From the sequence record PQ850626.1: a stretch of DNA of 64,000 nt. One strand, 5' to 3'. The notes beneath the pieces were generated by a model. It searched no databases. It was not told where the DNA came from and saw only the letters and a program-made list of their open reading frames with translations. Position numbers and translations under genes: made by a program. The first letter of the stretch is position 1; every line of letters starts with the position of its first letter. This DNA is from Escherichia phage SkaterBoy_Bas90. Positions 32,768 to 34,081 of the stretch are shown here, piece by piece.

Positions 32768-34081
32768 TTAGTTATTTGTTTCCATGTCAAAAGAGATTCC
32801 ACGACCCGCTTCATCGGCAAACCGAACTGTACGGGTTTGAGGTTCTAATACTTCAGGGTTGTTAGCAATAAAGCGATCAGCGAGACTATCTCCCAAATCT
32901 TGTTCCATACCTTCATCAGTCCAGATAACACGAGAAGGGGCGTTGATATCACCAACAGCGAAACCCTGACCAGAGAACTGACGTGCGCTAACAGTTAAGC
33001 CGTTTGGTCGACCACGAGAGGGTCTAGCCATCCATCGCTCCATAGAATCACTTGTAATACCAAGAGCTTCTTCAAAAGATGTTCTACGAGTAGGGCTTTC
33101 TCTTCGTGACTCTTGTGCTCGACGCATTGCAGGGGCTACAAACACCCCTTCAATTGCATTGTGTCGGTTAGGTTCCTCTTCTCGACCAAGCAGATCACCA
33201 CCCGTGTTAGTCGTTAAATTTGTCAACCCCTCAGACCAATACGCATGAATCTGACCAGAACCGTGAAGACTAGACATAATCTGAATCTCTTCATAAGGGA
33301 TTCCAAAGAATCGACTCATGTCTCGGTTAACACAATATAGAGCACTTGTTGTATCTTCAATAAGAGAAACCTGACCTAATCCATTGACTAGATGACTAAC
33401 TGGCTGAGGTGTGGGAAGATATCGAGTTTGGGCCATGTATTGATGCGCAACTGCTGGAGAGGAAAATCTCAACACTTGTGAGTTAGGCCACTTCTTGTGA
33501 ACATACATGATTTCACGACTAGAGACAACCACTGGACAAGGGGAAGTCATAGCCAAATATCCGTGAGAAGTCATGAATAAGTTGTCAAGAGTCATCGCAC
33601 CACGGCACATCATAGGAAAATTATCCAATACCTCTTCAATAGAAGTAGGATAATTAAACATGAATTGGATACGAACCCCATTCCACTGAAACTCAATAAT
33701 ATCAGTGAATGTTAATTGAGAACCCCCAGCATAGGATTCGTTTGTAGCTTCAGCAAGAAGTGATGCATATTCAATATCTTGTGACTCTAGCCATTCCTTC
33801 ACATTACTTTCAATCTCCCGTCCAAGCTCTTGCCAACGATCAGTTGGGATGAAAGTGTTTTGAGTTCTTGGTGTTTGTCCTCTGACAATAAAGATATCAA
33901 TGTCATGTGGAGCTATGTTATTAAGGACAGCATCACGAACAGCCCCACCAGTAATGATGGGACAGATACCATCTGGAATCAAGTTGTTGTTAATCAACTG
34001 TTCAATGAAGTGACGACCAACAGTGATATCAGGTTGTTGAGCAACCTTATCTTCAATTTGGTTAATCGGGATAACAATCAT
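32768..34081 (-). CDS. nucleotidyltransferase of the CCA-adding / poly(A) polymerase type (Pol-beta fold)
   Basis: GGAVRD followed by DIDIF, the head-domain motifs of class II CCA-adding enzymes; long C-terminal region without recognisable motifs. Confidence 0.5.
   Translation of the reverse strand: MIVIPINQIEDKVAQQPDITVGRHFIEQLINNNLIPDGICPIITGGAVRDAVLNNIAPHDIDIFIVRGQTPRTQNTFIPTDRWQELGREIESNVKEWLESQDIEYASLLAEATNESYAGGSQLTFTDIIEFQWNGVRIQFMFNYPTSIEEVLDNFPMMCRGAMTLDNLFMTSHGYLAMTSPCPVVVSSREIMYVHKKWPNSQVLRFSSPAVAHQYMAQTRYLPTPQPVSHLVNGLGQVSLIEDTTSALYCVNRDMSRFFGIPYEEIQIMSSLHGSGQIHAYWSEGLTNLTTNTGGDLLGREEEPNRHNAIEGVFVAPAMRRAQESRRESPTRRTSFEEALGITSDSMERWMARPSRGRPNGLTVSARQFSGQGFAVGDINAPSRVIWTDEGMEQDLGDSLADRFIANNPEVLEPQTRTVRFADEAGRGISFDMETNN

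Follow-up and report, generated by a model that had tools for sequence, protein, structure and literature searches.

What does the nucleotidyltransferase gene of Escherichia phage SkaterBoy_Bas90 do for the phage? The gene lies on the minus strand at 32768..34081 of the stretch that we analysed, 64,000 nucleotides of sequence record PQ850626.1 (hereafter, the window). A preliminary description, made from the sequence alone, had proposed a CCA-adding-type enzyme encoded alongside phage tRNAs, which could repair tRNAs attacked by host nucleases. We favour another answer, which we hold tentatively and rate at slightly less than an even chance: a counter-defence nucleotidyltransferase of the Gad2 superfamily, made together with the replication proteins, that would move nucleotides to a 3'-OH. 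Gad2 is a validated anti-Gabija protein, and the gene in the window encodes a divergent relative of it with canonical catalytic motifs.

The gene family and its relation to Gad2

The window is the genome of a Kuravirus (phiEco32-like, Gordonclarkvirinae), a podophage of E. coli. The 5-kb stretch around the gene is 99.5% identical to that of phage FS2B and 95-99% identical to those of dozens of other phages. The gene itself is as follows.

32768..34081, minus strand: nucleotidyltransferase coding sequence, 437 amino acids and stop, present in the list of open reading frames (ORFs) with an ATG start and matching phrog_12715 over its full length

The protein matches the 'nucleotidyltransferase' profile phrog_12715 (PHROG 12715) end to end (residues 1-437 against profile positions 1-457, E 1e-244) and is encoded in 97 phage records, whose hosts are all Escherichia or Shigella. 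Hence, the ORF is a real gene and not a chance one. It is 99.8% identical to the proteins of ES17 and myPSH1131. The family is already known and annotated, generically, as 'nucleotidyltransferase'. Word-seeded searches with the protein or with the family profile gave almost only close Kuravirus proteins, and going beyond them took an exhaustive search, with the profile, through 1.84 billion cluster representatives. This returned 42 matches, of which about 30 are true family members. These have 270-480 amino acids in total and share the N-terminal 210-230 residues. The proteins of EP335 and Bas87 are 31-35% identical to ours overall, and between genera only the first ~235 residues are conserved. 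Motif counts and invariant residues given for the family refer to 25 divergent family representatives. All 25 begin with M-I-x-I-P, which identifies the ATG at 34081 as the true start; a longer, GTG-initiated reading up to 34138 was rejected for the same reason.

The preliminary description had recognised a domain of ~130 residues and left ~300 without assignment. The folded part is larger. Residues 1-236, modelled by AlphaFold2 with a diverse alignment, reach a mean predicted local distance difference test (pLDDT) of 91.7 and a predicted template modelling score (pTM) of 0.88, while the full-length protein gives a poor model (pLDDT 48). A Foldseek search with the full-length model agrees with the domain model in pointing to a class II head, and we assign the fold on this agreement. 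A single-sequence search of the PDB sequences with the same protein found nothing relevant. The domain and its motifs, all on the minus strand, are the following.

33374..34081, minus strand: folded N-terminal domain, residues 1-236, a class II-type nucleotidyltransferase head with a small C-terminal helical sub-domain
33932..33949, minus strand: motif A, GGAVRD, residues 45-50; G45, G46, R49 and D50 are invariant and the motif aligns to the GGAVRD of CCA enzymes
33890..33904, minus strand: catalytic DxD, DIDIF, residues 60-64; D60, D62 and F64 are invariant
33701..33703, minus strand: D127, candidate third metal-binding carboxylate; the column, read by eye, is always D or E
33605..33619, minus strand: FPMMC, residues 155-159, where class II enzymes have motif B (RRDFTINA), with P156 invariant
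33491..33514, minus strand: EIMYVHKK, residues 190-197, tentatively where class II enzymes have motif D (EDxxRxxR), with Y193 and K197 invariant

GGAVRD and DIDIF thus stand where they had been described. The residues invariant across the family are G45, G46, R49, D50, D60, D62, F64, Y117, I128, Q139, P156, Y193 and K197. Position 127 is likely the third carboxylate, and the predicted model would place it on the strand that follows the long helix. FPMMC aligns to FDxxIC in the small phage nucleotidyltransferases described below and to FDFTVC in Gad2 homologues and, through both, to the RRDxTIN of the E. coli CCA-adding enzyme and poly(A) polymerase (PAP). EIMYVHKK belongs to a family motif [DE]xxYxx[KR][KR] found in 22/25 representatives; its equivalence in position to motif D is tentative, being derived from chained hhalign alignments. 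Judged by these alignments, the 236-residue core keeps the putative metal- and triphosphate-binding residues (GG..RD, DxD, the acidic residue 127 and K196/K197), and the protein would be expected to be catalytically active.

The relation to Gad2 goes through a third group of proteins. The families phrog_1614, 10174 and 4400 ('tRNA nucleotidyltransferase / PolyA_pol head'), found in Autographiviridae, Phapecoctavirus, ICP1 and others, consist throughout of the same domain as our family. They differ in having 167-250 amino acids, a short tail or none, and FDxxIC where our family has FPxxC. In contrast, phrog_12715 proteins carry a long tail that varies, and their gene is fixed in its own phage group. 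For Gad2 we built a profile from 9 homologues in Supplementary Table 10 of Yirmiya et al. (bioRxiv 10.1101/2023.05.01.538930). The hhalign comparisons (probability, E-value, aligned columns) gave:

Target-family core against the Gad2 profile: 90.5%, E 1.4e-6, 168 columns
Target-family core against the small phage nucleotidyltransferases: 99.3%, E 9e-21, 198 columns
Small phage nucleotidyltransferases against the Gad2 profile: 99.1%, E 2e-18, 186 columns
Small phage nucleotidyltransferases against the E. coli CCA/PAP head-neck: 91.4%, E 9e-7, 198 columns
Gad2 profile against the E. coli CCA/PAP head-neck: 75.6%, E 2.4e-5, 224 columns

This chain makes the Kuravirus protein a divergent branch of a superfamily of phage head-only class II-like nucleotidyltransferases that includes Gad2. 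The likeness to Gad2 covers the N-terminal ~200 residues, with a shared GG-loop, DxD, xQxM strand, F(D/P)xxC and basic ...Y/K..K.. helix, and both families are almost confined to phages and prophages. In addition, the precomputed tag PF26128.2 stands on 30/44 close homologue clusters. PF26128 is 'Gad2'; the tag is marked as weak on a 93%-identical homologue and carries no such mark on the small phage nucleotidyltransferases, while the exact protein of the window is absent from the tagged records. We found no paper naming the accession PF26128. The current Pfam already reaches the family with a weak Gad2 match. New here are the explicit mismatch with CCA enzymes reported below, the quantified link to Gad2, the architecture of a domain followed by a disordered tail, and the conserved setting in a replication module.

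Gad2 was identified as the second Gabija anti-defence protein: its knockout sensitises phage SPbetaL7 to Gabija, a homologue from a Brevibacillus laterosporus prophage blocks Gabija when co-expressed, and AlphaFold predicted a nucleotidyltransferase domain in it (bioRxiv 10.1101/2023.05.01.538930). The homology therefore supports the broad idea of counter-defence in the preliminary description, by a route that it had not foreseen, while the specific version, tRNA repair, finds no such support.

Several observations weigh against a Gad2-like role. The Gad2 tags are precomputed only, and with the Pfam copy used here an experimentally verified Gad2 homologue retrieved no family. The direct match to Gad2 is weak and depends on the profile: with two Gad2 sequences it falls to 42% (E 2.6e-4). 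The Gad2 homologues compared mostly have GG(A/T)ITS where the protein in the window has GGAVRD. They also differ at the other end: the ~200-residue C-terminal domain of the 400-residue forms of Gad2 is not shared, as the alignment stops at about Gad2 residue 200. Our protein has the disordered tail instead, plus an extra N-terminal extension of ~35 residues. (Many listed Gad2 homologues, of 214-278 amino acids, likewise lack that C-terminal region.) Gad2 lies in a variable anti-defence locus, whereas the gene in the window is fixed and syntenic in a replication module, a better fit for housekeeping. The protein ends ...ISFDMETNN, without the terminal aromatic tip of some relatives. The defence panel used on the BASEL Kuraviruses had no Gabija. 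Finally, the mechanism of Gad2 was still given as unknown in February 2026 (PMC12904381). Consequently, to say that our protein works like Gad2 carries over a phenotype and not a chemistry.

Another reading has an acceptor other than nucleic acid. The enzyme could nucleotidylylate host or phage proteins, or make a small nucleotide as signal or decoy. Consistent with this, Gad2 of SPbetaL7 is toxic when expressed alone and the homologue in the Pseudomonas putida phage Emajogi is cytotoxic. We regard such an acceptor as very unlikely.

Comparison with CCA-adding enzymes and with poly(A) polymerases

The gene has been annotated as a CCA-adding enzyme since 2014 (SU10 CDS74; O18-011), and there are reasons to take this seriously. 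Defences that target tRNAs are common, and on this view the enzyme would rebuild tRNA 3' ends after attack by host nucleases or toxins. CCA-adding enzymes are among the closest solved structures, motif A is almost identical to theirs, and, as in class II enzymes, GGxVRD is followed by DxD in a Pol-beta head fold. This part of the CCA-type homology stands, and the protein does not fall into an unrelated Pol-beta family such as the antibiotic nucleotidyltransferases.

Beyond the head, the resemblance ends. Pfam PolyA_pol (PF01743), one of the profiles by which the preliminary description had suggested checking the assignment, scores 18.8 bits on the full-length protein and 20.2 bits on the N-terminal domain, below its gathering cut-off of 23 bits. 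It matches 17/25 relatives weakly (best E 8e-4), and among the matches listed none reaches 23. An NCBIfam scan at E<=10 gave no match, neither to a CCA nor to a PcnB model (TIGR01942, PRK11623). In a profile search of the PDB sequences, the alignment to CCA enzymes spans just 27 residues, those around motif A, and identity to class II CCA-type enzymes is 14-19%. Direct hhalign comparison of the family with the E. coli CCA enzyme and PAP I was poor, with a misplaced alignment, and the link is the one made through the small phage nucleotidyltransferases. The RRD of motif B is absent from the core of 25/25 representatives; the aligned site reads LDNFP, with an invariant proline at the place of the aspartate. 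The EDxxR of motif D, an amino-acid template for the choice of C and A, is likewise absent from 25/25 cores. No Pfam RNA-binding domain was found in the protein, nor a helical neck, body or tail domain of the kind that binds the acceptor and T arms of tRNA; its own tail is disordered, acidic and lysine-free. From its motifs and domains, the protein does not appear to be a CCA-adding enzyme: it is predicted to lack the features needed to recognise tRNA or to select C and A. A stand-alone CCA-enzyme head does exist in Streptococcus pneumoniae (NP_344798.1, PDB 2LA3), but it is cellular, has no tail and is much less similar to our protein than PAP and CCA heads are.

The tRNA content of the phage points the same way. 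ARAGORN and Rfam retrieve a single tRNA gene in the window:

50337-50412, minus strand: tRNA-Arg(UCU), the sole tRNA of the window, 16 kb from the nucleotidyltransferase gene

The tRNA-Arg(UCU) had been described correctly, but the tRNA-like fragment reported with it was not found anywhere in the window by Rfam, even at E<=1. The phrase 'alongside phage tRNAs' is also inaccurate, given one tRNA at this distance and a nucleotidyltransferase gene placed in the replication module. The tRNA gene ends ...GGGCGC-A-CCA, so its CCA is genome-encoded and needs no synthesis; we rejected on this ground a role of the enzyme in maturing the tRNA of the phage itself. The host E. coli has a Cca enzyme of its own. 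T7-like phages as a rule carry no tRNA genes. Structurally similar small nucleotidyltransferases nevertheless occur in many of them (PMC7693777). Taken with the missing motifs, this makes CCA addition or repair distinctly improbable as the function. The 'CCA-adding enzyme / tRNA nucleotidyltransferase' label, copied over many phage genomes without support, can be corrected accordingly. In the related phage Bas91, a homing endonuclease gene overlaps the end of tRNA-Arg(UCU).

A template-independent head without a base template would also be compatible with homopolymer tailing of RNA, by which host or phage transcripts, or RNA primers, could be marked for decay or stabilised. The structural alignment to bacterial PAP I (PcnB) covers the head alone, however, and the neck and body of PAP I are missing. 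The C-terminal region of PAP I is basic, whereas the tail of our protein has a net charge of -10 and no lysine. The models TIGR01942 and PRK11623, for PcnB, are those without a match above. The RRD of class II enzymes senses the ribose of the incoming nucleoside triphosphate, and its loss speaks against strict use of ribonucleotides. We judge RNA tailing very improbable.

The replication module and the proposed role

The genes around the nucleotidyltransferase are concerned with DNA replication and nucleotide supply. In the order of transcription on the minus strand they are primase/helicase, PolA exonuclease subunit, nucleotidyltransferase, dCTP deaminase, three small paralogues, a ferritin-like protein, thioredoxin and ThyX.

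34634..36424, minus strand: T7 gp4-like primase/helicase of DnaB type (Pfam DnaB_C), with an acidic tail and the C-terminus ...ADGASPW
34083..34640, minus strand: separate PolA 3'-5' exonuclease subunit, 185 amino acids (Pfam DNA_pol_A_exo1), the upstream neighbour
32225..32758, minus strand: dCTP deaminase (Pfam DCD, E 3.6e-34), the downstream neighbour
30651-31262, minus strand: ferritin/Dps-like protein, annotated elsewhere as 'DNA binding protein'
30126-30401, minus strand: thioredoxin
29454-30110, minus strand: ThyX
23492..25336, minus strand: PolA polymerase-domain gene (Pfam DNA_pol_A, E 2.5e-23), 7.4 kb downstream of the nucleotidyltransferase

The stop codon of the exonuclease subunit is one base away from the ATG of the nucleotidyltransferase (junction ATG-TAA-A-ATG). 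EP335, Bas87, two IMG/VR contigs (29-33% identity) and a Logan contig have the same succession of primase/helicase, PolA exonuclease, nucleotidyltransferase and dCTP deaminase, so that the synteny of the four genes holds at 29-40% identity. The small phage nucleotidyltransferases likewise sit among genes of replication or deoxynucleotide (dNTP) metabolism:

Ralstonia phage DU_RP_I: primase, nucleotidyltransferase, DNA polymerase
Phapecoctavirus tuntematon: nucleotidyltransferase after DNA polymerase I
Caulobacter phage KSC: nucleotidyltransferase before primase, helicase and DNA polymerase
VP506-like Vibrio phage: nucleotidyltransferase before primase/helicase and DNA polymerase
Pseudanabaena phage PA-SR01: nucleotidyltransferase between DNA polymerase and ribonucleotide reductase
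Achromobacter phage AchV4 (locus L016, 4004-5481): small nucleotidyltransferase of the Gad2 family, followed immediately by dUTPase
Vibrio phage ICP1: nucleotidyltransferase near DNA ligase

In Pectobacterium T7-like phages the published gene order is PH-HEL-ITA-NT-DNAP (PMC7693777). The nucleotidyltransferase-dUTPase pair of AchV4 parallels the pair formed in Kuravirus by the nucleotidyltransferase and the dCTP deaminase, which has the dUTPase fold. Such neighbours disfavour a role centred on tRNA and fit an action on DNA or at the replisome. This is weak evidence, since the middle regions of phage genomes hold most of their enzymes anyway.

The same setting raises the question of whether the enzyme is simply part of the replication machinery: a terminal nucleotidyltransferase, tethered to the replisome, whose substrates are primers, the ends of Okazaki fragments or genome termini and which has nothing to do with defence. 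This would fit the gene's fixed place, after the PolA exonuclease subunit, to which it is apparently coupled in translation, and before dCTP deaminase. It would also fit the synteny that survives in distant relatives and the small nucleotidyltransferases that adjoin primase/helicase and DNA polymerase genes in Ralstonia, Caulobacter, Phapecoctavirus, VP506-like and Pectobacterium T7-like phages. Some relatives also end in SSB-like tips (...DDIPW, ...VPIF), and primase/helicases end ...SPW or ...LPF. However, most T7-like phages replicate without the gene, which is present in 60 of >500 non-Pectobacterium Autographiviridae (PMC7693777), and a distribution so patchy and so linked to the host is usual for genes that are accessory or serve counter-defence. 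The middle-gene clusters contain almost all phage enzymes, which lessens the weight of adjacency, and the aromatic tip is neither general (13/70, p = 0.04) nor present in our protein. We consider a pure housekeeping role unlikely. We also rejected the nucleotidyltransferase as a missing subunit of the polymerase, as a gene for the PolA polymerase domain is present at 23492-25336.

A second reading that starts from the neighbours is a DNA-modification pathway, in which the enzyme would work with the dCTP deaminase. The BASEL paper reports that these phages are highly resistant to restriction, and its authors suggested such a pathway as the explanation (PMC11990801). The window has 9 EcoRI, 28 EcoRV, 5 EcoKI and 92 EcoP1 sites, and site avoidance therefore does not explain the resistance to these enzymes; moreover, a related nucleotidyltransferase adjoins a dUTPase in AchV4. 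On the other hand, the phage encodes ThyX (29454-30110) and, according to the annotation of Bas91, a deoxynucleoside monophosphate (dNMP) kinase, so that ordinary dTTP supply accounts for the dCTP deaminase. CCWGG (3 against 72 expected) and several GC-rich hexamers are strongly avoided, which argues against a general protection of cytosines. We know of no class II-type nucleotidyltransferase that modifies bases. Of all the readings weighed here, we give this one the least credence. The same restriction-site census (window 1-64000) found no PstI, SacI, NcoI or SphI site, against about 10 expected, a single site each for BamHI, KpnI and MluI, and 141 GATC against 237 expected.

Our preferred reading is the counter-defence one. 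The nucleotidyltransferase gene seems to share a transcript with the replication genes, and its translation seems to be coupled to that of the PolA exonuclease subunit. Like Gad2, the enzyme would counter a defence by nucleotidyl transfer. In the version that we prefer, it would add nucleotides, without a template, to 3'-OH ends of nucleic acid that the phage produces in replication, and a nuclease system like Gabija, which works at DNA ends, would thereby be blinded. A 2026 review describes Gabija as acting at phage DNA ends that lack RecBCD activity. We favour the ends of DNA or of replication intermediates as substrate because enzymes of the class II lineage work at the 3' ends of polynucleotides, because the ribose and base templates are gone, and because that review places Gabija at RecBCD-less DNA ends. 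Both the substrate and the defence countered are inferred. In its most specific form, a terminal nucleotidyltransferase tethered by its tail at the replisome would add a few untemplated nucleotides to the 3' ends of phage DNA, which would thereby evade end-sensing Gabija-type nucleases and possibly exonucleases or restriction-linked systems. This full form, like the DNA-end version in general, is a long shot, about as unlikely as housekeeping. If true, it would fill in how Gad2 works and help to explain why Gordonclarkvirinae resist bacterial immunity; in the BASEL study (PMC11990801) their resistance to the defence systems tried was unusually high.

The gene is a constant feature of an abundant E. 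coli phage group, whose members include BASEL isolates that infect K-12 and are genetically tractable. It is therefore a convenient route to the function of the phage head-only class II nucleotidyltransferases and to the unsolved mechanism of Gad2, and it also allows one to ask whether such enzymes add to the defence resistance of Gordonclarkvirinae.

The C-terminal tail and other features of the locus

The residues that had been called unrecognisable are, after the extension of the folded domain, ~200 in number and predicted to be disordered.

32771..33373, minus strand: C-terminal tail, residues 237-437, predicted disordered, with pLDDT <50 for residues 274-437
33224..33244, minus strand: conserved island AYWSEGL in the tail, residues 280-286; W282 and L286 do not vary among Kuravirus, EP335 and Bas87
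32771..32881, minus strand: conserved C-terminal island, residues 401-437, ...RFADEAGRGISFDMETNN, 86% conserved within Kuravirus

R, E, S and G are frequent in the tail (residues 237-437), which has no lysine and the net charge of -10 given above. It varies in length across the family and cannot be aligned between genera. Motifs of the form x[WYF][ST]xG[LR], akin to AYWSEGL, occur in other family members. Within Kuravirus, conservation is 92% for residues 276-300 and drops to 67% in the indel-rich stretch of residues 346-400, which is flanked by conserved islands. The probable role of such a tail, with its handful of short conserved motifs, is to dock the enzyme onto a partner.

Where the partner might be sought is hinted at by the last residues of some relatives. 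A C-terminal F, W or Y is found in 9/25 family representatives (p = 4e-5 against tail composition). Among the 70 small nucleotidyltransferases, 13 have such a residue, a marginal excess (p = 0.04). An SSB-like aromatic tip as a general feature was rejected on this marginal count and on its absence from the protein in the window, and we take tethering by such a tip as a lead and not as evidence. The primase/helicases of the phages that bear the nucleotidyltransferase end ...SPW, ...LPF or ...SEF, with ...SPW or ...LPF recurring in distant relatives. The gp4 of T7 ends ...DF, and its tail docks on the polymerase. Phapecoctavirus-type small nucleotidyltransferases (P0087, P0090, P0091; L012, 4986-5579, in Phapecoctavirus tuntematon) end ...DDIPW, almost identical to the tip DDDIPF of E. 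coli SSB, and this ending is kept among them at ~62-65% overall identity. Some published Gad2 homologues end ...KPIF, ...VPIF or ...YPWF, also reminiscent of the SSB C-terminal tip. The small nucleotidyltransferase of the T7-like Ralstonia phage DU_RP_I (L011, 4935-5576) carries a zinc-ribbon-like CPVC...CQQC motif at its C-terminus in place of a disordered tail.

Further features concern the neighbouring genes. The family A DNA polymerase is split, with the exonuclease and polymerase-domain genes ~9 kb apart and many small genes between them. Since the phage encodes a thioredoxin next to a T7-like polymerase, it may bring its own processivity factor. Directly downstream of the dCTP deaminase, three small genes stand in tandem (69, 69 and 65 amino acids; 31609-32224, minus strand); they are paralogues, with 22-28% identity, a TRxxAR..K motif and a C-terminal ...Y. 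Upstream of the primase/helicase (L001, 25814-34274, in Bas91; L019, 1-5408) lie genes for an amidoligase, a glutamine amidotransferase, an ATP-grasp (RimK-like) protein, a COOH-NH2 ligase and a gamma-glutamyl cyclotransferase. This amidoligase-type cluster is typical of phiEco32-like phages and is kept in the distant Logan contig.

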